Source: Candidatus Scatovivens sp.
GTDB lineage: Bacteria > Bacillota > Clostridia > TANB77 > CAG-508
Assembly (NCBI GenBank): GCA_045630665.1
Contig: JAZQTI010000035.1
Location: 1 to 32,366, forward strand
DNA length: 32,366 nucleotides
Reading direction: 5' to 3'
In this document: one piece after another, positions 3,809-25,985 of the stretch
Numbering within the stretch: the first letter of the stretch is position 1
How the letters are laid out: each line of letters opens with the position of its first letter
Made by a program: the position numbers and the translations under genes
Notes under the pieces: generated by a model
Told to the model about the DNA's origin: nothing
What the model saw: only the letters and a program-made list of their open reading frames with translations
Database searches by the model: none

Positions 3809-4282
3809 TTATTTTAAGTGAAAAAACTTTATGCCTGCTTTTTCTTCCATTAATTTTAAATAAATATATTTTTGAATACCCATATAATATTTTGACGCTT
3901 CTTTTTCAAAATATTCATAATCTTCTTCATATAGATTTATTTTTATTGTTTTAGTTCTTCTTTTCTTTATTATTCCTTTATTTGTTGGATATTTATATTT
4001 AGGATAATATTTACCATTATATACTGTATTATAACCAATATCATTTTTATAAGACATATATTTACCAATGTAATAATTTTCTATTTCGTCAGCAATTTCT
4101 TCATCAACATTATCTTCTAATATTATATGTTCTACATTTTCCCAACCATATTTTTGTACTGCATCTTTCATTGCTTTTTGGTCATAACAATTTCCATTTT
4201 TCCATCTTTTTTCACAATTTGATGTTTGGCCTATATAAATTTTCCCATTAGGAAATTTGTGCATATATATATATTTTTTCAT
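3809..4282 (-). CDS. GIY-YIG endonuclease with C-terminal RHH-like domain
   Basis: YIY...KIYIGQT...RW and a later E fit the GIY-YIG catalytic pattern. The C-terminal TIKINLYEEDYEYFEKEASKYYMGIQKYI is RHH-like. Confidence 0.8.
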   Translation of the reverse strand: MKKYIYMHKFPNGKIYIGQTSNCEKRWKNGNCYDQKAMKDAVQKYGWENVEHIILEDNVDEEIADEIENYYIGKYMSYKNDIGYNTVYNGKYYPKYKYPTNKGIIKKRRTKTIKINLYEEDYEYFEKEASKYYMGIQKYIYLKLMEEKAGIKFFHLK

Positions 4283-5719: not shown

Positions 5720-6631
5720 TTAATCAGTTGTTTTTGTATATTCTATTGTGCAACGGCAAGGTTTATTATCATATCCTTTTCCAAATAACGAAACAGTATG
5801 TTCAACAGTACTATATTGTATTAATGAATAAAAATTTGAATTTGCATAAGCACCAATTTGATGCCAACCATTTGCATAACTAACTACTCCATAAGCATTC
5901 GTTAGCATTTCAATATTTGTATCTGTTAAGAGTGTAGTGTTAGTATTTGCTCCTAAAATATTTAAAAGTGTGCGTCTATATAAAGGTTTACCGTCAATCC
6001 AAATCCCTATTCTCTTTTCGATTGTTGAATATACATCTATATTTTCATATTCTTTATGTTCTACATAATCAGTAGCAGTATTACCTTTTTCCATTTGTAA
6101 TTTGCATTTGTAATTATCAAGAGTAGTTCCATTAGGTATTCTTAAAATATTTAATGTAATTGAAATATCAGCATTAAAACTATTAGTAAATGAAGTATTA
6201 TTTTCATTAAGTAATAAAGTAAAACCTTGATAATTATAATTTGCGTCTTGTAAATATATTGTACAATTTTCTGTTGTACTACCACTTACATAAGTGCTTG
6301 AAAATGTATATTGTGTACCACTTTTAAATTTCATTTTATTAAATGGTGCTAAATTAATATCAGTTCGTGCTGTTGCTGTACCATTAATTGTTAATTCATT
6401 TGTGCTTATATCATAAGTTGCAGTTATTCCATTTGATGTAGTTGTTGCAAATGTACTCATATCAACCATATTTTTCCCTGTTAATCCATCAACAATAATA
6501 TCTCCCATTGCTTTGTTACCTAACAACATATCATTATTATCTTTTATACCTGTTTCAATATTGTTTAAATTACTTGCTGTAGTAGGAGTATTTGTACTAG
6601 GCAAATTCTCCCAATTTGTTTTTACATACAT
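5720..6631 (-). CDS. Tail fibre / receptor-binding protein
   Basis: N-terminal KTNWENLPSTNTP..A.NLN.IE.GI, GKN...QMEKG.TATDY carbohydrate-binding-like module, YST.E.RIG.WIDGKPLYR and C-terminal IEYTKTTD; last tail gene. Confidence 0.75.
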   Translation of the reverse strand: MYVKTNWENLPSTNTPTTASNLNNIETGIKDNNDMLLGNKAMGDIIVDGLTGKNMVDMSTFATTTSNGITATYDISTNELTINGTATARTDINLAPFNKMKFKSGTQYTFSSTYVSGSTTENCTIYLQDANYNYQGFTLLLNENNTSFTNSFNADISITLNILRIPNGTTLDNYKCKLQMEKGNTATDYVEHKEYENIDVYSTIEKRIGIWIDGKPLYRRTLLNILGANTNTTLLTDTNIEMLTNAYGVVSYANGWHQIGAYANSNFYSLIQYSTVEHTVSLFGKGYDNKPCRCTIEYTKTTD

Positions 6632-7329
6632 AATTTTTCCTCCTTTAATGTATAATTAAGTTTTGCACTTTTTTGTAAATTATCTTGTGCTTTTAATAAT
6701 TGTAAATTAGAATAATGGCATAATTTTATTACATCCTCTTCAGTTTTTGCAGTTGCTAGAGGAATAATATGGTCAATATGAACAGGTTCTTTTTTGTCCC
6801 ATTCATAGCCATAATTATTTTTAAAAGTATCTAACAAATAAGAATAAAAGTAATCAAATGAACAACCAAGAATATCTTTTGTTTTACACATTTTCCTATA
6901 ACCTTTCTTTTGAAAACAAACTCTAATATTTGTTCTTATTTGTTTTTTTATTTTAAATAAATTGTCCGAGTGAAACCTTATATTTTCTCTTTTACTTATA
7001 TTTTTTCTATTTTTTTTATTTCTTAATCTTGCTTTCATATTTAATTCTTCTTTGTTAAGTTCTCTATTTATTTTTCTTCTTTTTTGTATATCATTTTTAT
7101 TTTTTTGATAATAAGAACTCATTTTGTTTAAGATTTCTTCTCTATGCTTTTTGTAATAATTATTTCTTATTGTTTTTTCTATTTGCTTATGTTCTTTTAT
7201 ATACTCATAACGATACTTTTTTTCACATTCTTTACAAGTATGTCTATAATGTCCATTATCTTTTCTAACTCTAAATTCTTCTAAAGGTTTCTCTAATAAA
7301 CATTTTTTACATACTTTACTATAAGCCAT
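6622..7329 (-). CDS. HNH homing endonuclease with N-terminal CxxC...CxxC zinc finger
   Basis: CKKC...CKEC; HIDHIIP...HYSNLQLL...N..KS. Confidence 0.85.
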   Translation of the reverse strand: MAYSKVCKKCLLEKPLEEFRVRKDNGHYRHTCKECEKKYRYEYIKEHKQIEKTIRNNYYKKHREEILNKMSSYYQKNKNDIQKRRKINRELNKEELNMKARLRNKKNRKNISKRENIRFHSDNLFKIKKQIRTNIRVCFQKKGYRKMCKTKDILGCSFDYFYSYLLDTFKNNYGYEWDKKEPVHIDHIIPLATAKTEEDVIKLCHYSNLQLLKAQDNLQKSAKLNYTLKEEKLCM

Positions 7330-16451: not shown

Positions 16452-16952
16452 TTAATTTTTTGTACCACGTAATAAACTATTCATAATATCATTTGTAGTT
16501 TGTGGTTTTGTTCCACCTGCTAATGTAGGTGAACTTTGCACTTTCTTAACTACAACTTCTCCAAAATATTGAGTATTTTCTTTTTTGTAATTTTTAAGTG
16601 CTGTATCAAAATCAGTAGTGTCATTAACCATAGACATTACTTCACTTGTAACGAATTTTAAAAATTCAGGTTTAACATCACTGCCAGCAACTTTACTTGT
16701 TGCTTTTAATAATGCGTTCTCTCTTTTTAATGCTTCATTACTCGTTTGTAATTCATTGATTTTTTCACTATCATTTTGATTAGATTTTTTCCACTCTAGA
16801 AATTCTTTATATTTTTCATCTTTTTGCCAATCTGAATTAGCTTTCTTCACACCAGCATTAAATGAATTATCTAAATCTTCCTTTGTGTATGTTTTTTGAG
16901 TAGGTTCTTCTACTTTTTTTTCCGTTACTTGAACGTCTTTGTTATCTTCCAT
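16452..16952 (-). CDS. Capsid scaffolding protein
   Basis: Directly upstream of MCP; KTYTKEDLD motif; coiled coil. Likely start is ATG 16952 with RBS AAGGAG. Confidence 0.8.
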   Translation of the reverse strand: MEDNKDVQVTEKKVEEPTQKTYTKEDLDNSFNAGVKKANSDWQKDEKYKEFLEWKKSNQNDSEKINELQTSNEALKRENALLKATSKVAGSDVKPEFLKFVTSEVMSMVNDTTDFDTALKNYKKENTQYFGEVVVKKVQSSPTLAGGTKPQTTNDIMNSLLRGTKN

Positions 16953-17043
16953 AACATTTTCTCCTTCTTTTATAGACATAGTTTAGTCTTATTCCACTTT
17001 TTTTGTGTCGTGTGCAACTATTGTTCTCTCGAACTCTATAATA

Positions 17044-17080
17044 ATTATACTATAAAATAAAAAAAGTGTCAAAGACACTA
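17044..17080 (-). promoter_or_regulatory. Consensus SigA promoter for the capsid/tail operon, overlapping the tRNA terminator
   Basis: TTGACA (17067-17072)-17 bp-TATAAT (17044-17049). The -35 box lies in the hairpin AGTGTC-TTT-GACACT-T7. Confidence 0.75.
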
Positions 17081-17090
17081 TAATTTCACA

Positions 17091-17164
17091 TGGCAGGGAA
17101 TAAGTGAATCGAACACTTATCAATGGTTTTGGAGACCATGATTTTACCATTAAACTAATCCCCT
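17091..17164 (-). tRNA. trnW: tRNA-Trp (CCA), 3' CCA encoded
   Basis: Acceptor stem AGGGGAT/ATTCCCT, D arm GTTTAATGGTAAAAT, anticodon loop CT-CCA-AA, T loop GTTCGATTC, discriminator G, then CCA. Confidence 0.93.
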
Positions 17165-17176
17165 ATAAAAGCAAGA

Positions 17177-17488
17177 TTATTCCTTGCTTGATTTTTTCTT
17201 TTTAGGTTTAGTAGTTGTTATCTCTGTTTTAACACTAACTGCTTTTTCTAATTCTTCTATTGGTGATTGTGATAATATTTTTATTTCAGGCTCAACCTCA
17301 ATTACTTTAACAACTACTTTATTTAAAGGATTATTTCCTGTCAAATAATCAACCATTTTTTCATCGCATTCAAAAGTATCGCCTTTAAATAATTTACCTT
17401 TTTCTGCTACTGACTTTCTTGTAATGTTTTTCAATTCATTAAACTTTTCTAATGTAAAATCTTCATTAATAACTTCAACTTTTATCAT
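17177..17488 (-). CDS. Hypothetical protein, basic C-terminal tail
   Basis: ORF track; RBS AAGGAGGAG; co-transcribed with GT2. Confidence 0.75.
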   Translation of the reverse strand: MIKVEVINEDFTLEKFNELKNITRKSVAEKGKLFKGDTFECDEKMVDYLTGNNPLNKVVVKVIEVEPEIKILSQSPIEELEKAVSVKTEITTTKPKKKKSSKE

Positions 17489-17501
17489 GCTATCTCCTCC
17501 T

Positions 17502-18554
17502 TTAATATTGTTGATAAATGTTTCTATTTACTCTGCTTATACATTCTTTTACTCTTTTTTGTAATATTGGTATCATTTCTTTATGTTTTAATTGCCCTAT
17601 TAGTTGTAACTGATGACCTATATGACACCACGCACTAGCGTCCCAATAACTATTTCTAACCATTGACACACTATTTGTTGTATTAGTTCTATTCCATACA
17701 TAACAAACTTCTTTTATATTAATTACTTTATCTAAATCATCTATTTGGTCTGCTTGTCTATAACTCCAAACTCTATCTTCCATAAGTGTATCTTCGCAAA
17801 AATAAACAATTTTACTTTTTTTGATAACTCTAGCCCAAGCAGTACACCATACTTTATTATCACTTAAAAAGAAATCTTCATAATTACTATATTGATGAAA
17901 TTTTGTCATAAACACACCATTTTTGTCTATAAGCTCCATTCCTAGCAATGCCATGTCGTGTCCATATAAACGATTATTTATAGTTTCCAATACTTTATTA
18001 TCTTTCCACCAATCATCACTATCTAAAAAAGCAAAATAGTCAAATTCTAAATTGTTTAAAGCATAATCTATACCAACATTTCTGCTTCCACCATTATACC
18101 TTTTTCTTTTATTTTCTATTAAATGGATTCTTTTATCTTTCTTTTGATATTCCTTTGCAGTTTCAACTGATGTGTCAGTAGAGCAATCATCAACTATTAT
18201 CAATTCAAAATCTTTATAAGTTTGATTCAATATACTTTCAATACAATTTCTAAAAAATGATTTACCTTTATAATCACCACGATCATTATTACAATTTGGA
18301 ACTATTATTGCAAATTTATAATTTATTTTATCAGGTAATTTATCAAAATCTTTTTCATTTATATTAGATTTTTTTAAACAGTCAACTTCATAATTAGTTA
18401 AATTTATATCTACAAATTTACAATTTTTATAATAAATACAATGTAATCCTGTCTTTAATAAATCTTTATAGTTTTCATCATCAAACAAATATATATAATC
18501 ATTATTATTTTGCTTAACTACGCTTATACTATTTTTATCAACTGCTATTTTCAT
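17502..18554 (-). CDS. Glycosyltransferase family 2
   Basis: IIVP..N, CIESILNQTYKDFELIIVDDCSTD, SRNVGI, FLDSDD (DXD), ED. Likely start is ATG 18554. Confidence 0.92.
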   Translation of the reverse strand: MKIAVDKNSISVVKQNNNDYIYLFDDENYKDLLKTGLHCIYYKNCKFVDINLTNYEVDCLKKSNINEKDFDKLPDKINYKFAIIVPNCNNDRGDYKGKSFFRNCIESILNQTYKDFELIIVDDCSTDTSVETAKEYQKKDKRIHLIENKRKRYNGGSRNVGIDYALNNLEFDYFAFLDSDDWWKDNKVLETINNRLYGHDMALLGMELIDKNGVFMTKFHQYSNYEDFFLSDNKVWCTAWARVIKKSKIVYFCEDTLMEDRVWSYRQADQIDDLDKVINIKEVCYVWNRTNTTNSVSMVRNSYWDASAWCHIGHQLQLIGQLKHKEMIPILQKRVKECISRVNRNIYQQY

Positions 18555-18571
18555 ATTTATCACCTAAATTA

Positions 18572-18612
18572 ATTATACCATATCAAACAAAAAAGGACAA
18601 ATCGTGTCCTTT
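18572..18612 (-). promoter_or_regulatory. Terminator plus SigA promoter in front of GT2
   Basis: Hairpin AAGGACA/TGTCCTT-T-run overlaps TTGTCC-17 bp-TATAAT with extended TG. Confidence 0.65.
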
Positions 18613-18970
18613 AATCAATTTTCCAAATATATTCAATTTTTTTATCAGTGCAATCCCACGTGTCTATAATATATCCATTAACACACGCTGTTATATGATT
18701 ATTAGTAGTTATTAAATATTTTCCAATAGGGTGATTTTCTGCAAATTCACCTATATATGTTTCAATATATGGAATTCTTTTAAATTTATTATCTAAAAAA
18801 CCCCTTACAAAAACAGCGTTGTCCATCATTTGACCTTGTTCCATTGCACTTTTACATATTTCTCTATATGCTTCTTTCCAAGTTATATCCATTACTATCG
18901 AATATGCCCTAGGAAAGCAGTCATCAATAAAATTATTATGACTATTTGCATTGTAGTAAAAATATCGCAT
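18611..18970 (-). CDS. Hypothetical protein, possible Cys-His-Asp peptidase-like fold
   Basis: DC..RA, HITAC and DTWD motifs; last gene of the accessory operon. Confidence 0.6.
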   Translation of the reverse strand: MRYFYYNANSHNNFIDDCFPRAYSIVMDITWKEAYREICKSAMEQGQMMDNAVFVRGFLDNKFKRIPYIETYIGEFAENHPIGKYLITTNNHITACVNGYIIDTWDCTDKKIEYIWKID

Positions 18971-18971
18971 A

Positions 18972-19445
18972 TTATCTCATACTTCTTTGTAATGTTTCAT
19001 TAAGCATTTGTTTCTTTTGTGGTGTATCTGCTTCCTCATGTAAGAAATCTAAATATTCTCCTAATGCTTTTGCCATGAAATGAAATGCTTTATCAGATTC
19101 TTCTCCTGCTCCGTATCTTTCTCTTGATTCCATATATCTACCATATTCGTTAGACATTCTGTCCATGTAATCATCACCACGATATCTCATATCACGTCCT
19201 CTAGCACCATAGTTTCCTCTGCCATAGTTTCCATAATCCCCATAGTTATCACGCCCATAGCTATCATATCCAGGACGTCTTGCACCATAGTTTCCATAAT
19301 TTCCGTAATTCATATTTTCTTCCTCCTTTGCTATATGATTTATTTTAGTTAGTTTATACAAATGATCTAGATTGTTGGTAGTTATACCTTCGTCTAGTAT
19401 CTTATTTATACTTTCTTCGGTTTTCTTTTCTAACTTCTCGTGCAT
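18972..19445 (-). CDS. Hypothetical protein with central YG/RG low-complexity repeats
   Basis: YGNYGNYGARRPGYDSYGRDNYGDYGNYGRGNYGARGR between helical ends; RBS AAGGAGG. Confidence 0.85.
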   Translation of the reverse strand: MHEKLEKKTEESINKILDEGITTNNLDHLYKLTKINHIAKEEENMNYGNYGNYGARRPGYDSYGRDNYGDYGNYGRGNYGARGRDMRYRGDDYMDRMSNEYGRYMESRERYGAGEESDKAFHFMAKALGEYLDFLHEEADTPQKKQMLNETLQRSMR

Positions 19446-19447
19446 TG

Positions 19448-19627
19448 TTATTCCTCCTTTCTTAAAAGGGTTAATATTTCATCATTTTGCTTGATTATCT
19501 TTTCTAAATAATTACTATCTTGCTTTTGTAACTCTTGCATTAAATCCCTGTTGTTATAGTCTTGTAATAATAAAATAACGCTATACAATTGCAAGATTAA
19601 TGATGTCATATCTAAATTATTTCTCAT
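19448..19627 (-). CDS. Hypothetical 59-aa protein (not in ORF track)
   Basis: MRNNLDMTSLILQLYSVILLLQDYNNRDLMQELQKQDSNYLEKIIKQNDEILTLLRKEE; the start overlaps the upstream stop (TAATG). Confidence 0.75.
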   Translation of the reverse strand: MRNNLDMTSLILQLYSVILLLQDYNNRDLMQELQKQDSNYLEKIIKQNDEILTLLRKEE

Positions 19628-20088
19628 TAAATTCTTGAAATACTAAATGTAGCATTAGTTATAATTGCTTGTGTAGTTGCTATTGGTGTTGTAGGGTCAG
19701 TTGGTGTAGGTACACTTGGAACACTTTGAACTGATATATTAGTAGTTCCACGAGGGCATACTCTTAATTTCTTATCAAATGAAATAGTTTCATAATCATC
19801 GGCAGCTGCAATAGTTACGGCTCTAACTGTATCAGGTATTAGCACTCCATCTTGGAATAGCCCTATTGCTACTACACCAGCAGTCGCAGTACTCACTGAA
19901 GCACTAAATTCTACATCATAATAACCTGTGTATCCATTTCCAAATATTTTAAAATTAGGATTACCATTTGAATAATCTAACCAACCACAACAAGATGCAC
20001 ATCTAGTTCTAACAGTTGTTTCATCAAAAGTTATTGGACTTGCATTACTTGGTAATGCTAATGGTTCATTTATAATTGTTTCTATCAT
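19627..20088 (-). CDS. Beta-sandwich protein, BclA-CTD/C1q-like
   Basis: ITFD, GYYDVEFSASV, VAIGLFQDG..IP, NATFSISRI; Cys cluster CASCCG. True start is ATG 20088 (RBS GAAAGGAG), not 20214. Confidence 0.65.
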   Translation of the reverse strand: MIETIINEPLALPSNASPITFDETTVRTRCASCCGWLDYSNGNPNFKIFGNGYTGYYDVEFSASVSTATAGVVAIGLFQDGVLIPDTVRAVTIAAADDYETISFDKKLRVCPRGTTNISVQSVPSVPTPTDPTTPIATTQAIITNATFSISRI

Positions 20089-20146
20089 TTTTGTTTCTCC
20101 TTTCAATAATTTTGCACAATATTTTAAATATTTTGTGCATTTTTTA

Positions 20147-20179
20147 AAATAAAAGAGAATAGAACTATGCCTATTCTCT
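20147..20179 (-). terminator. Intrinsic terminator after the Gly/Cys-rich gene
   Basis: AGAGAATAG/CTATTCTCT stem followed by TTTATTTT. Confidence 0.7.
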
Positions 20180-20254
20180 ATGCTACCGACATTTGTGTCG
20201 GTACCTGTTAGCAAGTTCTCGTATTCGAGTTAGTTGTATTCAACTTCTATGCTA

Positions 20255-21133
20255 TTAAATAAATTGACTTGTTGTGTTAAATCCACATCCACATCCATTA
20301 TTTCCAGGGCATGTGAAAATTCTTTGATTTCCATAGACTGGTATTGTATTTATTGGGCATGTGGCTAGGCGATTATACAAAGCGTCAACTTCATTGTTTA
20401 ACCCTTGTGCAATAAATGCGTTTTGTGCAGTTTGTGAAGCTTTTAAATCAGCCATTTCAAGTTGTCTTTGTAAATCAGCAATCTTTTCGTTTTTAGCATC
20501 AATTTTGTCATTGCATAATTGGTCTAAAATACGTTGAGTGTTAGCAGTTTGGTTGATTAATACATCTTTTAAACCATCAGCTAATGCTGCTCTATCAGCA
20601 CAATTTTCGCTTAAGATAGTGCTGTTTAAATTAGCAATACCTAAACGATTTTCACAGCAACAGTCAGCGAATTGTCTACTTAATGCAAATGTGTCTTGCA
20701 TTTGGTTCATAGCTCTATTATTAGCGCTTATTTCGCTATTATAGAAGCCATTTGAAATTGCACTTGTTATGTCGCTTGTGCTATTACATATTTGGTTAGA
20801 TAATCCATAAATGCCATCTCTAGCACCTTCTAATTGGTTAGATAAATGTAATGTGTCAAATCCGTTGTTAGTGTTAGTCATAATGTCTTTTTGACCATTT
20901 GAAAGCCAAGCATATCCATTATCAAAACTATTATTACCAAAGAAACCACCATTGCCATTATTTCCCCAACCACCGAATAATGCTAATAATAAGATTACCC
21001 AAATAAAGTCGCTTCCATAACCACCAAAACCATTACCATATCCACCCATCATCATTGGGTATACTGGATAAGCATTGTTATTAGTTGCTAGGTCAACAGT
21101 TGGAACTATTCCTGAGTTTCCGTTCATTTTCAT
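20255..21133 (-). CDS. Gly-rich, one-TM, CCC-motif coiled-coil protein of unknown function
   Basis: GGYGNGFGG-FIWVILLLALFGGWG, ADCCCENR, ILDQLCNDKI coiled coil, C-terminal GCGCG. Start is 21133 or 21127. Confidence 0.85.
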   Translation of the reverse strand: MKMNGNSGIVPTVDLATNNNAYPVYPMMMGGYGNGFGGYGSDFIWVILLLALFGGWGNNGNGGFFGNNSFDNGYAWLSNGQKDIMTNTNNGFDTLHLSNQLEGARDGIYGLSNQICNSTSDITSAISNGFYNSEISANNRAMNQMQDTFALSRQFADCCCENRLGIANLNSTILSENCADRAALADGLKDVLINQTANTQRILDQLCNDKIDAKNEKIADLQRQLEMADLKASQTAQNAFIAQGLNNEVDALYNRLATCPINTIPVYGNQRIFTCPGNNGCGCGFNTTSQFI

Positions 21134-21219
21134 ATCTCCTTTCTATATATTTAAGGTGCTAGAAGCCTTATAGGAAGATATCATTTCTAGCATAATACCC
21201 TCCTATAAAGCTTTTAACT

Positions 21220-21465
21220 TTATTTTTGAGTATTTTGCTTGTTAAACATTCCCATCATTTGTTCCCATTGTTGTCTTTGTTGTGGGTTAAAACCATTTAT
21301 TGTTTCATTTAATAAATCATTTGGGTTGTTATTCTTTCTTGCCTCTTGATATTTTTTGAAAGCCTGTGGATTTTGTGCTTTCAATTGTTTCTCTAATTGG
21401 TTCATCATATTTTGTGGTATTTGTTGTATTTTGTTCTGCATTAACATTTGGATCATTTGCATCAT
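21220..21465 (-). CDS. Small Q/N/M-rich helical protein
   Basis: NPQ...NP repeats; RBS AAAGGA. Confidence 0.75.
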   Translation of the reverse strand: MMQMIQMLMQNKIQQIPQNMMNQLEKQLKAQNPQAFKKYQEARKNNNPNDLLNETINGFNPQQRQQWEQMMGMFNKQNTQK

Positions 21466-21850
21466 TTTTAATCATTCCTTTCAATTCTTCTATTTGCGTT
21501 TGTAAATATTCAATTTGTAAATCTTTTGCGTCTTTTGGTATTATTTCACTTAATTCGTAAGTTTTTATTTCACCTTTTGTATTTTTAATCCATACTACTG
21601 ACATATCTTTGCTAAAATATGGTGTATCACCAACAACCATGTCTCTTTGTACTTCATCAATTGAATTTGCGTATTTTATTACATCACGATTAGTAGGTGC
21701 TAATTGAAAATTTTGTGTTAAGTTGGTAGGTTGTTGTACAGGTGGTTGTTGCATTTGATTTCTCATTTTTTCTAGTTCTGCAATTTGGTTATTTATTCTA
21801 TCTATATTAACTTGTGCATTATATGGATTCATAAATTGATTGTTATACAT
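21329..21850 (-). CDS. Hypothetical protein, Q/P/N-rich N-terminus
   Basis: RBS AGGAGG; globular-looking core PYFSKDMSVVWIKNTKGEIKTY. Confidence 0.8.
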   Translation of the reverse strand: MYNNQFMNPYNAQVNIDRINNQIAELEKMRNQMQQPPVQQPTNLTQNFQLAPTNRDVIKYANSIDEVQRDMVVGDTPYFSKDMSVVWIKNTKGEIKTYELSEIIPKDAKDLQIEYLQTQIEELKGMIKNDANDPNVNAEQNTTNTTKYDEPIRETIESTKSTGFQKISRGKKE

Positions 21851-21865
21851 ATTAGTTCCTCCTAA

Positions 21866-21946
21866 TTAAATAAAAAGAAGGAGTGCATATAGATATCGCA
21901 TTTTTTTGCTAACAATTGGCTCATTGCCTTCTTGTAATTTTTCCAT
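21866..21946 (-). CDS. Putative leader peptide (26 aa)
   Basis: MEKLQEGNEPIVSKKMRYLYALLLFI; RBS AGAAGGAGG. Confidence 0.55.
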   Translation of the reverse strand: MEKLQEGNEPIVSKKMRYLYALLLFI

Positions 21947-22008
21947 CTATATTCCTCCTTCTACTTACTAATTTACTATCCTTTAAAGATACAAAATGAT
22001 ACAACCAC

Positions 22009-22035
22009 AAAAAAAGAACTCTAATTGAGTTCTTT
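22009..22035 (-). terminator. Terminator at the end of the AgrB-like gene
   Basis: AAAGAACTC-AATTA-GAGTTCTTT followed by TTTT. Confidence 0.75.
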
Positions 22036-23232
22036 AATTTTATTATTTATTCTATCTTTTATCTTTTTAATACCTGCTTCAGTATAGTTGTATTTAATAC
22101 TTAAACTTATAGCATTTTTCTTTTTAACAAAATATTCATAACATATTTTGTATTTTATACTATCTTTATCAACTACTTTTAAAATTGTTTCTTCAAACAA
22201 TTCTTCAGGCATTCCTCTATAAAGTGGTTTATACGCTTTCTTTACTAATTTAGATGTAATATAAGATAAACCGACACCTAGCATAATTGGAATGAATATA
22301 CTTATTCCTAATGGAGTAGTAATTCTATTTAAAGTGTAGTAGGTTAAGTTTGAAACAATAAAACATTGTGCCATGCTAGATAAGTGAAATGCTTTGCCGA
22401 ATGTTCGTTTGGTTAGCCAAAATGAAGTTAGTATAAATAAGCATTCTATCAAAGTGTGATTTAATTTTGCTACAAGTAAAATTAACACAACACTTAAAGT
22501 ATTCCAAATTAGACTTAATATAAAATAAATAATATAAGTTAATTTTGTAATTTTATCTAATTTTCTAAAATTACGCAATTTTTCTTGCAATTTTGTTAGC
22601 AATTTCTTTAAGTTTATCTTCTTTAGCAAATAAGAAAATGCTTCCTCCACCTGGTAACATATTTCTCCTCCTCTCAAAAAATACAATTTATATAATATAA
22701 TAATCATAATTAGAAAATCTAAGTTCATTAATAATGATATTGAAAAATTATAACCATTTGAATTTAAACTTTGACTTCTAACTATCATTGATATAAATTG
22801 ACAAAATACTATAAATAAAGTTAATTTCGTAAACTTCTTAATTTGTATTTTTTTAGTTTTAATAAAGTATATTATAATAGTTAATATATAGTCGCTAAAT
22901 ATATGCATTAAAGGATTATTTATTATTGTTTTTAAATATTGAAATATTACTATTAATGGAAACCACATAAAAGTATACAATTTTATTTCTTTATCATTTT
23001 TATTGCACATTATAGAAATGACAATATAAAAATTAATAAAACAATTAATATAAGAAATGATAATGTCTAATTTAAAAACTTTACAAAAATCATTAATTTG
23101 CAAAATTGTAGGATTATTAATATCCAAACCAAAATAATCTAATCCTACTATCTTCATTATAAACACACATACTAATACAAAAAGATACACTCTTAAACTT
23201 GCCGACAAATATTTGTCATAATCTTTAAACAT
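22021..23232 (-). CDS. Polytopic membrane protein: sensor-like TM domain + AgrB-like protease domain + C-terminal HTH
   Basis: About 6 N-terminal TM segments; KRTFGKAFHLSSMAQCFIVS (R-x6-H-x6-C); C-terminal YEYFVKKKNAISLSIKYNYTEAGIKKIKDRI (sigma-4-like HTH). Start is ATG 23232 with RBS GAGGAGGTGA. Confidence 0.75.
   Translation of the reverse strand: MFKDYDKYLSASLRVYLFVLVCVFIMKIVGLDYFGLDINNPTILQINDFCKVFKLDIIISYINCFINFYIVISIMCNKNDKEIKLYTFMWFPLIVIFQYLKTIINNPLMHIFSDYILTIIIYFIKTKKIQIKKFTKLTLFIVFCQFISMIVRSQSLNSNGYNFSISLLMNLDFLIMIIILYKLYFLRGGEICYQVEEAFSYLLKKINLKKLLTKLQEKLRNFRKLDKITKLTYIIYFILSLIWNTLSVVLILLVAKLNHTLIECLFILTSFWLTKRTFGKAFHLSSMAQCFIVSNLTYYTLNRITTPLGISIFIPIMLGVGLSYITSKLVKKAYKPLYRGMPEELFEETILKVVDKDSIKYKICYEYFVKKKNAISLSIKYNYTEAGIKKIKDRINNKIKELN
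22571..22660 (-). CDS. Nested AgrD-like propeptide (29 aa), out of frame inside the AgrB-like gene
   Basis: MLPGGGSIFLFAKEDKLKEIANKIARKIA*; RBS AGGAGG 6 nt before ATG. Confidence 0.55.
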   Translation of the reverse strand: MLPGGGSIFLFAKEDKLKEIANKIARKIA

Positions 23233-23299
23233 TTTTCTCACCTCCTCAATAAAATGAAAAAAGATACCTCGCTAGTATCTTTTTCCACCCCTTGTATTA

Positions 23300-23328
23300 A
23301 TTATACATTTTTAATTTGTACAAGTCAA
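23300..23328 (-). promoter_or_regulatory. SigA promoter of the AgrB-like gene
   Basis: TTGACT (23323-23328)-17 bp-TATAAT (23300-23305). Confidence 0.7.
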
Positions 23329-23661
23329 TTATTTTAATATATCAGTTTTGCTTATTTCCCATTGTTCCATCTTTTTTGCAATTGTATGTATGTATGAGTT
23401 TCCTCCAAGTGATTCATATACCCCTAACATATCCAAAAAATTTTGATAAACATAATCGGGGATAGCTTTAAGTTCATTGTAAACAAAATATGTATTAGTT
23501 AATTGACTTTTTAATAAAGTTTGCAATGCTACATTTTGCAATTTTTCGTTTGAAGTTTTATCTTCAAGTTTCTTTTTGTAATGTTTAATACGACCAACAC
23601 AATAAGTTAAAATACTACCTACAACAAAACTTATTGCCGTATTAATTATTGTTTGTGTCAT
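23329..23661 (-). CDS. Single-TM holin-like/lysis-associated protein
   Basis: N-terminal TM segment; LLKSQL...Y..LGGN motif of a phage family usually found near lysis genes; RBS AGGAGG. Confidence 0.55.
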   Translation of the reverse strand: MTQTIINTAISFVVGSILTYCVGRIKHYKKKLEDKTSNEKLQNVALQTLLKSQLTNTYFVYNELKAIPDYVYQNFLDMLGVYESLGGNSYIHTIAKKMEQWEISKTDILK

Positions 23662-25087: not shown

Positions 25088-25565
25088 GATACACGACCGA
25101 AGTCGTAGTATCTCTGGTCTAAAGACATCATTGTCGAACCATTAAACCAGTGCTATTTTATAAGCACTGTACCAAATTCAAGTATATTCATCTTTCCAAC
25201 TAGTATTGTATACTTGTAATTCAGTACACTACCTATAAAAGATAGTGATAAAATAAATAGACTAATCACATTACTCGTTATACCTTCAACATTCTAAGCA
25301 CCACTGTATAACAATACGGTAGGAAGGTGGCTTTCTTCCTCGTGATATTTACCATTTTCACTATTTATTTTAGTTACCAAATAGATATTTACTAGCACCA
25401 CTAGATACACTAGGCATTGGGTTTTATATCTCCATATCTATTTGCATTAATTAATAGTGCCTATTATAAGCACCATTGAATAGATATTTTCGCCTAACTC
25501 CAAATGAAGTGCATTTTACAAGGGCTTATTGTAATATATCTACTCAATGCTGATTATAAATCAGC
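25088..25565 (-). ncRNA. Candidate large structured non-coding RNA
   Basis: About ten abutting stems, a C(UUCG)G hairpin, and mismatches that resolve as G-U only on the minus strand; no ORF of 60 aa or more in the track. Confidence 0.6.
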
Positions 25566-25896
25566 CTCTATTTTTTAATTGTTCTTTATATGTTGCCCAT
25601 CTTAAATTAGAAACATTATTATTTATCTTATTTCTATCAATATGGTCAACTGTTGGTTTGTTTTCAGGATTATCAATAAACAATTCTGCAACCAATCTAT
25701 GTATAGCATAATATTTAACCTTACCATTATTATATAAAGGTAATCTATAATAGCCTTTATTTGATAGTGTTGGCTTTTTAATGGTTTCTACACATTTTCT
25801 TTTTTGCATCATTCTTGATAAACTTTTAACTCTACCAAGATTACTTACTTGATATAACCCCTCATAATTTGGTATGTCTTTCCATACTTCTTCCAT
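25561..25896 (-). CDS. NUMOD4-HNH endonuclease
   Basis: EVWKDIPNYEGLYQVSNLGRVKS; IHRLVA..FI.NP...VDHIDRNKINNNVSNLRW. Start is ATG 25896. Confidence 0.9.
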   Translation of the reverse strand: MEEVWKDIPNYEGLYQVSNLGRVKSLSRMMQKRKCVETIKKPTLSNKGYYRLPLYNNGKVKYYAIHRLVAELFIDNPENKPTVDHIDRNKINNNVSNLRWATYKEQLKNRG

Positions 25897-25899
25897 ACA

Positions 25900-25985
25900 T
25901 AACACCTCCCGAATAAGTGTTAAGGGAAGTAATTCGGGTACTTCCCCACAATTTAATTATATCACTTCTTTTTCTTTTTTGTCAA
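25900..25985 (-). promoter_or_regulatory. Promoter and two-hairpin leader of the HNH gene
   Basis: TTGACA-18 bp-TATAAT with extended TG; two hairpins with complementary 7-nt loops. Confidence 0.7.

Follow-up and report, generated by a model that had tools for sequence, protein, structure and literature searches.

A block of seven small genes, g2-g8, which is carried by very many rumen and gut phages, travels as a unit and is dispensable for building the virus particle. We analyzed it in a 32,366-nucleotide stretch of Candidatus Scatovivens sp. DNA (contig JAZQTI010000035.1, assembly GCA_045630665.1), hereafter the window. Two of the seven products have recognizable predicted folds, namely a BclA-C/TNF-like jelly roll (g5) and a minimal papain-like peptidase (g8), whereas the other five belong to no known family. 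The most likely explanation, to which we assign a probability of only about 0.4, is that the products are the parts of one multi-protein assembly made in the infected cell.

The initial annotation described eight tightly coupled open reading frames on this stretch, and its observation holds: all eight are present on the minus strand at 21946-18611 (Table 1). Neighboring genes are packed closely, as g3 overlaps g2 by 137 nt and g5 to g8 abut or overlap by 1-2 nt, the start of g6 overlapping the g5 stop in a TAATG. GGAG-type Shine-Dalgarno sequences precede g1, g2, g4, g5 and g7. The described sequence features are also there: CCC at residues 158-160 and GCGCG at residues 280-284 of g4, YG/RG repeats in g7 and a Q/N/M-rich g3. 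However, the operon is split by a terminator-like hairpin into g1-g4 and g5-g8, and g1 is, by our reading, a conserved mini-ORF in only 22 of 87 upstream regions.

Table 1. Positions of the genes and regulatory elements of the cassette in the window
Feature	Coordinates	Strand	Description
Hairpin plus T-run	22013-22035	-	Terminator-like; closes the AgrB-like gene and would insulate the cassette from upstream transcription
Direct repeat	21988-22004	-	TTGTATC-N3-TTGTATC between the upstream terminator and g1; candidate operator
g1	21866-21946	-	26 aa; mini-ORF with a hydrophobic C-terminus; either a leader ORF or a small peptide
g2	21329-21850	-	173 aa; Y/N/Q/P-rich N-terminus, roughly 50-aa beta-rich core, coiled coil, variable basic tail
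g3	21220-21465	-	81 aa; Q/N/M-rich, helical; overprints the 3' end of g2
Long hairpin	21158-21218	-	g3-g4 spacer
g4	20255-21133	-	292 aa; Gly/Asn/aromatic-rich N-terminus around a 10-14 residue hydrophobic run, helical and coiled-coil body, conserved cysteines
Hairpin plus U-run	20154-20179	-	Conserved, intrinsic-terminator-like; after g4, about 65 nt before g5
g5	19627-20088	-	153 aa from its ATG; predicted BclA-C/TNF/C1q-like jelly roll with an N-terminal Cys motif
g6	19448-19627	-	59 aa; small, helical
g7	18972-19445	-	157 aa; helical N-terminus, Tyr/Gly/Arg-rich low-complexity center of variable length, helical C-terminus
g8	18611-18970	-	119 aa; predicted minimal papain-like cysteine peptidase
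Hairpin plus T-run	18592-18612	-	Terminator-like; closes the cassette

Similar clusters are common in gut phages, as the initial annotation had suggested. A search of IMG/VR found 366 stretches, and in a profile search with g4, 7998 of 8000 scored candidate protein clusters reached E<=0.001. Genes g2-g8 are co-conserved in the same order in most of 119 related loci. In 81 loci (80 from IMG/VR plus the cultured Butyrivibrio phage Ceridwen), tblastn found g2 in 78, g3 in 64, g4 in 81, g5 in 77, g6 in 75, g7 in 72 and g8 in 71, in the same order, with the misses being mostly at contig ends. In 20 loci, Ceridwen included, the cassette is rearranged so that g8 lies upstream of g4. In 18 of them the order g8-g2-g3-g4 is seen, followed by g5-like and g7-like genes where the contig continues. 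An hhalign comparison of the close and rearranged versions gave E-values of 5.8e-13 for g5, 4.4e-10 for g7 (probability 96.7%), 5.5e-5 for g3 and 3.5e-4 for g2, whereas seven cross-family controls gave 0.0035 to 0.87. No counterpart of g6 was recognized in the rearranged cassettes.

A comparison of relatives shows that the cassette is not a virion-assembly gene set. Of 56 loci anchored on the major capsid protein (MCP), 20 have portal or head-morphogenesis genes next to scaffold and MCP with no cassette gene in between, at 52-70% MCP identity. Of the 56, 13 carry g4, and 4 more truncated contigs carry only downstream cassette genes.

In order to test the coding status of the genes, we measured codon-position entropy across 66-86 distinct homologues. 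Each of g2-g8 varies most at position 3, then 1, then 2 (0.79/0.47/1.14 for positions 1/2/3 of g6). In the g2/g3 overlap this signal follows the g3 frame (0.90/0.67/1.13), whereas g2 loses the pattern in its last 40 codons (1.13/0.95/0.89). The length of the overlap ranges from 1 to 137 nt among loci.

The RNA elements differ in how general they are. The hairpin after g4 was found in 76 of 83 g4-g5 spacers, against 1 of 226 control windows of 125 nt inside g4. RNAalifold on 38 sequences (the window plus 37 of 66 distinct hairpins) gave 9 pairs, 8 of them with compensatory changes. In the window, the g4-g5 spacer folds at -35.1 kcal/mol (z -5.2, 0 of 200 shuffles as good). The g3-g4 spacer folds at -33.7 kcal/mol (z -5.9, 0 of 200), but its long hairpin is not general, as the median g3-g4 spacer in 72 loci is 38.5 nt, against 86 nt here. 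The hairpin that closes the AgrB-like gene has a 9-pair stem followed by TTTTTGTGGTT, and a lenient search saw a hairpin plus T-run within 260 nt upstream of g2 in 54 of 85 loci. The closing hairpin has an 8-pair stem followed by TTTGTTTGAT. Its fold alone is not unusual (z -1.2), and a comparable element follows g8 in only 23 of 76 loci.

The mini-ORF g1 has its own strong Shine-Dalgarno sequence, AGAAGGAGG, 7 nt before the ATG. An ORF of 15-45 aa ending within 40 nt of g2 is present in 32 of 87 upstream regions, and the 22 regions mentioned above are those that share the hydrophobic C-terminal type. As the last codons of g1 are the pyrimidine tract that can pair with the g2 Shine-Dalgarno sequence (-10.1 kcal/mol, z -2.0, 11 of 200 shuffles as good), the conservation may lie at the RNA level.

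Directly upstream lies a gene for a 406-aa membrane protein that matches Pfam AgrB over residues 213-324 (3.4e-7; 30.3 bits against a cut-off of 23), although only positions 3-108 of the 185 profile positions are covered. As in the agr quorum-sensing locus, it is followed by a small ORF. However, g1 has no AgrD features that we could recognize and g1-like mini-ORFs also occur where the AgrB-like gene is absent. No AgrC or AgrA was seen among the ORFs scanned, and the AgrB-like gene is linked to the cassette in only 13 of 119 loci. Hence, density control, which the initial annotation had proposed, is not a general property of the module. The direct repeat between this gene and g1 belongs only to the sub-lineage that carries the AgrB-like gene. 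It is the only exact copy in the window, and a relaxed form occurs in 7 of 13 loci with an AgrB-like gene directly upstream and in 0 of 74 without one. As the repeat lies about 20-30 nt from the end of that gene, plain co-inheritance could explain the association.

Searches for known families gave little. No product matched a metabolic enzyme or a standard virion protein, and no Pfam, NCBIfam or PADLOC family was found for g2, g3, g4, g6 or g7. PHROGs places g4 (phrog_16490, 1.2e-33), g5, g7 (a weak match to phrog_28802, 0.0048) and g8 (phrog_3754, 8e-21) in families of unknown function, none of them in a head or tail category. g2 has no PHROG family, and in a profile search with g2, 7998 of 8000 scored candidates reached E<=0.001, all unnamed or 'hypothetical' apart from one automatic 'prefoldin' label. 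No Pfam family recurred in 46 members of the g7 family. g4 is the best-conserved product: in an alignment of 63 sequences, C116, C158-160, C207, C259, C275, C281 and C283 are at least 90% conserved. It has no PDB sequence match below E 0.01, and its only Pfam rows are weak coiled-coil ones.

The two predicted folds are clearer. The AF2 model of g5 has a pLDDT of 87.2, and a Foldseek search of the PDB with it gave 99 hits at E<=0.001. The top ones are the BclA CTD 3twi_A (6.4e-6, TMq 0.62), F-BclA 9h38, BxpB 8d02 and ExsFA 7r1m, followed by cyanophage tail-fibre domains, 4-1BBL and C1q. Pfam BclA_C matched 19 of 50 family members (best E 9e-6), but not the window's own protein. In g8, residues N7, N9, D17, C18, R21, W31, L59, H92 and D103 are invariant in 56 sequences and include a Cys-His-Asp triad. 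Its AF2 model has a pLDDT of 95.3. Foldseek gave nothing at E<=0.001, but in a VIA-align comparison with 48161 chains most of the best 50 rows, including nearly all of the top 16, carry papain-like cysteine peptidase, deubiquitinase or amidase titles: PeiR with Z 6.6, the PCAT1 C39 domain with 6.5, Josephin-2 with 6.2, and the LahT and ComA peptidase domains with 5.9. These matches are modest, as a Z under 8 can be a common arrangement.

The analysis thus establishes a self-contained accessory insert of seven genes plus a leader ORF in the late region of a siphovirus, bounded by terminator-like hairpins and split by a conserved one, which recurs with g8 moved to the front across deeply diverged gut and rumen phages and contains a jelly roll and a papain-like Cys-His-Asp peptidase. 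The remainder of our reading, including any function, is inferred. In this view, the assembly would be made in the cytoplasm or at the inner face of the membrane of the infected cell. g2, g3 and g4, which lie upstream of the attenuating terminator, would be the abundant scaffold, held together by g4 through its hydrophobic Gly-rich segment, its coiled coil and its cysteine clusters. In a strict anaerobe these clusters more likely bind metal than form disulfides. g5 would be a trimeric BclA-like head displayed on this scaffold, g7 a Tyr/Arg-rich linker, and g8 would cut one of the components to mature it.

This reading is supported by the unit character of the block, with the order g2-g8 kept in 71-78 of 81 loci, by its accessory status, by the conserved hairpin as a stoichiometry signal, and by a content that appears structural rather than enzymatic, with low-complexity and coiled-coil composition. 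The sequences show neither N-terminal signal peptides nor positively charged flanks around the g4 hydrophobic run. However, physical interaction of the products remains an inference. No sigma-70-type promoter stands out upstream, as 10% of 81 upstream regions score 10 or more, against 17% of shuffles. Identity to the window is almost uncorrelated between the genes across 93 loci (Spearman at most 0.35), and g5 and g8 come in discrete allele classes that combine freely, which fits loosely coupled parts as well as one machine. Furthermore, g8 relatives stand alone among early genes in Geobacillus phage GBK2 and Bacillus phage Tsamsa, the only two such neighborhoods inspected, so g8 may serve another purpose.

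Two alternatives are about equally unlikely. The first, a protective coat or occlusion-like body for virions, was the main idea of the initial annotation, whose interpretation is partly supported overall. The products would bind or embed finished virions in the cytoplasm and harden after release, for instance by Cys or Tyr cross-linking once oxygen is met, which would protect the phage between animal hosts. In the window's lineage the cassette sits between the head-morphogenesis and scaffold/MCP genes, its presence and absence among relatives fits the fact that decoration proteins are typically dispensable, its composition is rich in Cys, Gly and Tyr, and TNF-like domains occur on phage particles, as the cyanophage tail-fibre hits show. 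However, in the few rearranged loci whose neighbors we read (Ceridwen and two loci designated L101 and L116) the block follows the lysis genes, away from capsid genes. Seven genes including a peptidase is far more than any known decoration system, no product is homologous to a head or tail PHROG, and a term search of the Ceridwen paper (PMC7372960) found no mention of virion proteomics. If the coat reading were right, occlusion or inclusion bodies of insect and pox viruses would be a functional analogy only, as a virus-encoded, non-essential protein matrix. Pfam rows for Pox_A_type_inc (12 of 63 g4 members, best E 0.001) and NPV_P10 (4 of 63) are low-complexity coiled-coil matches below any threshold, and there is neither homology nor evidence of a body.

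The second is a membrane-acting or lysis-accessory module, in which the Gly-rich hydrophobic N-terminus of g4 would insert in the membrane like a glycine-rich bacteriocin or holin-type segment after removal of a leader at a Gly-Gly site by the C39-like g8, with the other products tuning or targeting it. The nearest folds to g8 include the double-glycine leader peptidase domains of PCAT1, LahT and ComA, g4 has a conserved N-terminal stretch ending in GG followed by the hydrophobic run, and the rearranged cassette directly follows the lysis genes in Ceridwen (endolysin), L101 (holin and endolysin) and L116 (endolysin). g8 also resembles peptidase family C39 and other minimal clan-CA peptidases in size (119 aa against about 130-150 aa), with a Cys near residue 18 and a His-Asp pair near the C-terminus. 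However, Pfam Peptidase_C39 matched 0 of 56 g8-family members, and PeiR, Josephin and staphopain score equally, which leaves the subfamily undecided. g8 is neither fused to nor next to an ABC transporter, and no ABC exporter or signal peptide is present. In addition, the hydrophobic run is short and lacks charged flanks, g4 is far larger than such peptides, and in the window the endolysin lies about 13 kb away.

It is slightly less likely that the block is not one system but a stable string of unrelated host-takeover or anti-defence genes that stay together only through linkage. The nearly independent gene histories, the solitary g8 in other phages and its different position in the two arrangements would agree with this. 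Against it, order and content are kept across divergence down to 32-40% identity in g4 and across two different genomic slots, g5-g8 are translationally coupled with median spacers of -6 to +1 nt, the internal attenuator is conserved, and there was no PADLOC hit with E below about 1e-3.

Spore-surface conversion, in which the phage would add exosporium- or coat-like proteins to host spores, is the least likely, as Ceridwen carries a homologous cassette and has only been seen growing lytically on Butyrivibrio fibrisolvens (PMC7372960); this weakens the host-dormancy option of the initial annotation. Butyrivibrio fibrisolvens is not known to sporulate. The best structural matches of g5, namely BclA, F-BclA, BxpB and ExsFA, are exosporium proteins. 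g5 does share its jelly roll with exosporium building blocks of the Bacillus cereus group (Foldseek E 6e-6 to 6e-5), and like BxpB/ExsFA it is a stand-alone protein of about 150 aa, made without a signal peptide next to cysteine-rich partners (ExsY/CotY in the exosporium). However, it has no collagen-like repeats, and g4 has no homology to any solved protein. The metagenome-assembled genome (MAG) that holds the contig has Spo0A_C (158.5 bits) and an alpha/beta SASP (99.7 bits), but this 72%-complete MAG gave no GerQ or BclA_C match at E<=1 and no SpoIVA at E<=0.001. Bin membership of a phage contig is in any case weak host evidence, and related contigs are binned with very different taxa. A small GerE/LuxR-type HTH precedes the rearranged cassette of L101 (8.4e-6), but GerE is a general LuxR-family model.

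In its genomic behavior the cassette resembles phage morons and accessory inserts in late operons, being inserted between conserved structural genes, absent from close relatives, bounded by terminator-like hairpins and found in more than one genomic slot. It differs from them in having seven co-conserved genes instead of one or two and no recognizable host-type promoter, and no link to lysogeny is shown. If its products do form a single assembly in the infected cell, candidates for what this would provide to the phage are a coat for released virions, a membrane or lysis accessory, or an infection compartment.

The whole 32.4-kb contig, which belongs to a 1.5-Mb MAG that is 72% complete, reads as a siphovirus with every gene on the minus strand. 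In order, the genes encode the terminase subunits, portal and minor head protein, followed by a few small genes including an HNH endonuclease, an AgrB-like membrane protein, the eight ORFs under study (g1-g8), a family-2 glycosyltransferase and a tRNA-Trp, the scaffold and major capsid protein, and finally the connector and tail genes, tape measure, endolysin and recombination genes. The initial annotation was correct in what it observed, as the eight ORFs lie exactly where it had placed them and all of the features it described are present: a 26-aa mini-ORF (g1), a Y/N/Q/P-rich protein (g2), an overprinted Q/N/M-rich protein (g3), a Gly-rich protein with one hydrophobic run and CCC and GCGCG motifs (g4), a Cys-bearing all-beta protein (g5), a 59-aa helical protein (g6), a YG/RG-rich protein (g7) and a 119-aa protein with Cys, His and Asp (g8).

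Features of the contig outside the eight reading frames, and the hairpins that flank and divide the cassette
Position	Strand	Feature
25561-25905	minus	homing, HNH or endonuclease VII-type gene
22021-23241	minus	AgrB-like membrane protein, 406 aa
22035-22013	minus	terminator-like hairpin with T-run after the AgrB-like gene
20179-20154	minus	terminator-like hairpin with T-run between g4 and g5
18612-18592	minus	terminator-like hairpin with T-run after g8
18600-18572		TG-extended -10 promoter-like site of the glycosyltransferase gene
17502-18563	minus	family-2 glycosyltransferase (Pfam 1.7e-28)
17091-17164	minus	tRNA-Trp (CCA)
17079-17065		terminator-like hairpin following the tRNA-Trp
17072-17044		perfect 12-of-12 sigma-70 consensus promoter in front of the scaffold and capsid genes
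6622-7329	minus	homing, HNH or endonuclease VII-type gene
3809-4282	minus	homing, HNH or endonuclease VII-type gene

The genes are real and travel together, a point on which the initial annotation had made its reading depend. A protein search with g4 returned 7998 of 8000 scored candidates at E<=0.001, which saturated the limit of the search, and none of the best 120 carries an informative name. A profile of g2 behaved the same way. IMG/VR held 366 matching stretches, of which 80 were examined, and one-genome-per-species contigs held 38, all from gut or rumen MAGs with very mixed taxon labels and mostly on phage-sized contigs. In 81 loci (80 from IMG/VR plus Ceridwen), tblastn with the window's proteins found g2 in 78, g3 in 64, g4 in 81, g5 in 77, g6 in 75, g7 in 72 and g8 in 71, in the window's order. 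For all 119 loci the counts were g4 119, g8 102, g5 93, g2 92, g6 90, g7 85 and g3 72, and many of the misses are at contig ends. Two of 36 other genomes of the same genus as the window's MAG also carry g4, one of them on four separate contigs, which means that either several related phages are co-binned or that this genome carries several prophages. HNH copies sit inside or beside the cassette in some relatives, on the opposite strand (for example, in loci L035, L037 and L056), whereas in the window the three endonuclease genes are scattered through the structural and lysis regions.

Each of g2-g8 shows the coding pattern of variation (position 3 > 1 > 2) across 66-86 distinct homologues. In the 137-nt overlap of g2 and g3 this pattern follows g3, while the tail of g2 loses it, so g3 is a true overprinted gene. 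We also considered a programmed frameshift that would join g2 and g3, but dropped it because g3 lies in the +1 frame and has its own start, and because the overlap shrinks to 1-11 nt in some relatives and to as little as 1-4 nt in some of them. A search for fused or longer forms of g4 found none, which is weak evidence.

A second, rearranged version of the cassette exists. In 20 loci, including the cultured Butyrivibrio phage Ceridwen, g8 lies upstream of g4. In 18 of them the order is g8-like, g2-like, g3-like and g4-like, followed, where the contig continues, by g5-like and g7-like genes and in several by a further protein of about 110 aa. In the few of these loci that were read, the block directly follows the lysis genes: the endolysin in Ceridwen, the holin and endolysin in locus L101, and the endolysin in locus L116. 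In five that were scanned, a small HTH protein lies just upstream. It matches Sigma70_r4_2 at 4.7e-6 in locus L096 and the general GerE/LuxR model at 8.4e-6 in L101, whereas the other three gave only weak rows. In several rearranged loci (L001, L096, L098 and L099), a small single-span membrane protein followed by a sigma-70-region-4-type HTH of about 70 aa lies between the endolysin and the cassette, which looks like a dedicated regulator pair. Profile-profile comparison of the close and rearranged sets gave E-values of 5.8e-13 for g5, 4.4e-10 for g7, 5.5e-5 for g3 and 3.5e-4 for g2, whereas seven cross-family controls gave 0.0035 to 0.87. The content of the cassette is therefore older than its present position. 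No counterpart of g6 was recognised in the rearranged version.

We anchored the search on the capsid protein instead and examined 56 loci. Of these, 13 carry g4 upstream of the scaffold gene, 4 truncated ones carry only downstream cassette genes, and 20 have portal or head-morphogenesis genes directly followed by scaffold and capsid genes with no cassette gene between, at 52-70% capsid identity. Phages that build nearly the same head thus do without the cassette, and it is an accessory insert. Like a moron, it is absent from close relatives at the same site and, in the window, bounded by hairpins, although no promoter of its own was identified. Four of the 20 loci (L148, L149, L151 and L157) have only the glycosyltransferase in the slot. 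This gene, which was found in 26 of 119 cassette loci, has its own promoter-like site and is an independent insert.

Of the three terminator-like hairpins around and within the cassette, the middle one is conserved. It was detected in 76 of 83 g4-g5 spacers, against 1 of 226 windows of 125 nt inside g4. An RNAalifold run on the window plus 37 of the 66 distinct hairpins gave 9 pairs, 8 of them with compensatory changes, although the alignment has register shifts and some of these counts may be inflated. Such an element after a major-subunit gene usually lowers the dose of the downstream genes, and we infer that g1-g4 would be made at a high level and g5-g8 at a low one. A search for sequencing runs listed no RNA data set and only DNA data sets with a small share. 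Genes g5-g8 are translationally coupled, with median spacers of -1, -6 and +1 nt. A canonical sigma-70 promoter upstream of g1/g2 was sought and not found above shuffles. The sigma-70 consensus promoter beyond the tRNA-Trp suggests that the capsid genes restart transcription after the inserted block. The structured spacers that had been described are real. The g4-g5 spacer folds strongly (z -5.2), but the long g3-g4 hairpin (z -5.9) is a peculiarity of this contig because the median spacer elsewhere is 38.5 nt, and the pairing between the pyrimidine tract at the end of g1 and the g2 Shine-Dalgarno sequence is only modest (z -2.0). A search of Rfam with positions 16900-23400 returned only the tRNA.

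Nine residues of g8 are invariant in 56 sequences (the window plus 55 of 91 distinct homologues), including C18, H92 and D103, which occur in the order expected of a catalytic Cys, His and Asp/Asn, as well as N7, N9 and D17. The AF2 model is confident (pLDDT 95.3). Foldseek found nothing at E<=0.001, although its weak rows include several papain-like deubiquitinases, amidases and peptidases. In an exhaustive VIA-align search, most of the 50 rows (Z 3.6-6.6), including nearly all of the top 16, carry papain-like cysteine peptidase, deubiquitinase or amidase titles, with PeiR, C39 leader-peptidase domains, Josephin and staphopain leading at Z 5.9-6.6. This Z range alone is not decisive, and it is the uniform kind of the matches together with the invariant triad that we find persuasive for a predicted papain-like alpha+beta fold. 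No Pfam family matches any of the 56 sequences, including every C39 model, and no transporter was found among the cassette ORFs. The g8-type family is much wider than the cassette. Its members stand alone among early genes in Geobacillus phage GBK2 and Bacillus phage Tsamsa, the two neighbourhoods inspected, and tblastn also finds them in other Tsamsa-like phages, in Lak megaphages and in one Pseudomonas phage.

The g5 model (pLDDT 87.2) is an all-beta jelly roll of the ten-strand type seen in BclA-CTD, C1q and TNF. Its best matches are the BclA C-terminal domain, the F-ENA tip protein F-BclA, BxpB and ExsFA, followed by phage tail-fibre domains, 4-1BBL and C1q (99 Foldseek hits at E<=0.001). 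Pfam BclA_C (PF18573) matches 19 of 50 aligned homologues, with a best E of 9e-6, whereas the window's own g5 has no Pfam row at E<=1. The earlier guess of a BclA-CTD is thus right at the level of the predicted fold. However, the 153-aa sequence has about 35 residues before the jelly roll and no GXX repeat, and it lacks the collagen-like repeats and exosporium-targeting N-terminal domain of full-length BclA.

In g4, nine cysteines are conserved in at least 90% of sequences in an alignment of the window plus 62 of 105 distinct homologues. It also has a Gly/Asn/aromatic-rich N-terminus around a 10-14 residue hydrophobic run without charged flanks, and a short coiled coil. Its Pox_A_type_inc and NPV_P10 rows were judged to be coiled-coil noise. 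Sequence profiles of g8, g4 and g2 gave nothing below E 0.01 in the PDB, and a search of the ESM Atlas returned only unnamed viral clusters and no structure. No family was found for g2, g3, g6 and g7. By our reading, none of the products has a signal peptide. Complex prediction of g4 with g5 gave no verdict (score 0.00), which is not evidence either way. A comparison with the defence-system profiles of PADLOC-DB 2.0 gave no match, with only two weak rows among 10 proteins (g8 to 2TM-TIR at 9.6e-4 over 27 residues, and g3 at 0.088).

The initial annotation had placed the cassette directly downstream of an Agr-like regulator and had suggested that it may be density-controlled. The 406-aa membrane protein does match Pfam AgrB in part (PF04647, 3.4e-7, 30.3 bits against a cut-off of 23), but only over residues 213-324 and profile positions 3-108 of 185. 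An extra multi-span N-terminal half and a C-terminal tail of about 80 aa have only a weak Mga-HTH row (0.029), and the protein may be a membrane-tethered regulator rather than a plain AgrB. Moreover, it precedes the cassette in only 13 of the 119 loci that carry g4. The identification of g1, which is too short for a profile search, as an AgrD was dropped, as mini-ORFs of the same type with their own Shine-Dalgarno sequence occur in loci without the AgrB-like gene. By our reading, 22 of 87 upstream regions have one. None of the 30 window ORFs scanned gave a kinase or LytTR row in PHROGs, and the 10 of them also scanned with Pfam gave none either, albeit on an incomplete contig. One thing does track the AgrB-like gene, namely a direct repeat TTGTATC-N3-TTGTATC just upstream of g1, which is present in 7 of 13 linked loci and in 0 of 74 others and is unique in the window. 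It may be an operator in this sub-lineage, or it may simply be co-inherited with the neighbouring gene. Density control is therefore at most a local add-on.

The cassette does not look like a spore-coat set either. Ceridwen was seen only in lytic growth on Butyrivibrio fibrisolvens, and its authors consider it virulent (PMC7372960). B. fibrisolvens is not known to sporulate. The MAG of the window does carry Spo0A (Spo0A_C) and a SASP gene, but at 72% completeness it shows no SpoIVA or BclA_C match, and the bin of a phage contig is weak evidence of host. Spore_GerQ, which was considered for the Q-rich g2, had no match at E<=1 in the whole assembly, the window included. No coat family was found in Pfam or NCBIfam for g2-g8, in searches that did not look for ExsY/CotY-type families by name.

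Taken together, the content of the cassette is low-complexity, coiled-coil and cysteine-rich proteins, a predicted TNF-like head and one predicted peptidase, with no nucleotide-handling or metabolic enzyme. Together with the tight coupling and the inferred dose-setting terminator, this fits the parts list of a single protein assembly made in the infected cell, to which we assign a probability of about 0.4. In this view, g2-g4 would be the bulk, g5-g7 the minor parts and g8 the processing enzyme. The existence of the genes, their conservation as a set, their accessory status and the conserved hairpin were demonstrated by the analysis and the two folds rest on structure models, whereas the assembly itself, the relative dose of its parts, the trimeric state of g5 and the proteolytic activity of g8 are inferred. 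In a strictly anaerobic host, the conserved cysteines more plausibly hold metal than form disulfides. That changes only after release into air, which is what keeps the coat or occlusion idea alive. On the other hand, gene-by-gene identities across 93 loci are almost uncorrelated. Genes g5 and g8 each occur in discrete allele classes (about 93% against 38%, and about 87% against 37% identity to the window, respectively) and all four combinations occur (47, 31, 5 and 10 loci), which points to frequent recombination inside a cassette of fixed order. No interaction between the products has been shown.

The interpretation offered by the initial annotation is thus supported only in part. As to the purpose of an assembly, its main proposal, a coat or decoration of virions, is unlikely, and a membrane or lysis accessory with a Gly-Gly-processed g4 is equally so. 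It is slightly less likely that the genes do not form one system at all, a possibility with which the uncorrelated gene histories agree. The conversion of spore surfaces is the least likely of these readings. A further possibility, also improbable on present evidence, is that tailed phages of the anaerobic gut build a dedicated, non-virion protein structure in the infected cell from prion-like, Gly/Tyr/Arg/Cys-rich subunits, a BclA-like trimer and a maturation protease. This would be either an occlusion-like coat that protects released virions outside the animal or a condensate-type infection compartment, neither of which is known for small siphoviruses.

PHROGs already groups g4, g5, g7 and g8, but in families of unknown function, and the Ceridwen record annotates the genes as hypothetical. 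Full-text literature searches found no paper that describes the cassette, and the accession numbers of two cassette genes occur nowhere in the main text of the Ceridwen genome paper (PMC7372960), although its annotated genome maps are in supplementary files that might contain notes on these genes. As a system, the cassette has no known counterpart. Five of its seven proteins belong to no described family, and its parts include one known fold family and one new family of a known fold. It is among the commonest gene sets of ruminant and primate gut siphoviruses, it is conserved in order while its alleles reshuffle, and it is dispensable for making particles. It is also open to direct study because one cultured phage-host pair, Ceridwen and Butyrivibrio fibrisolvens DSM 3071, carries a homologous version. 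Whatever it does, the cassette is a large and cleanly delimited piece of gut viral dark matter, and if it builds a coat or a compartment, that would be a new kind of phage structure.
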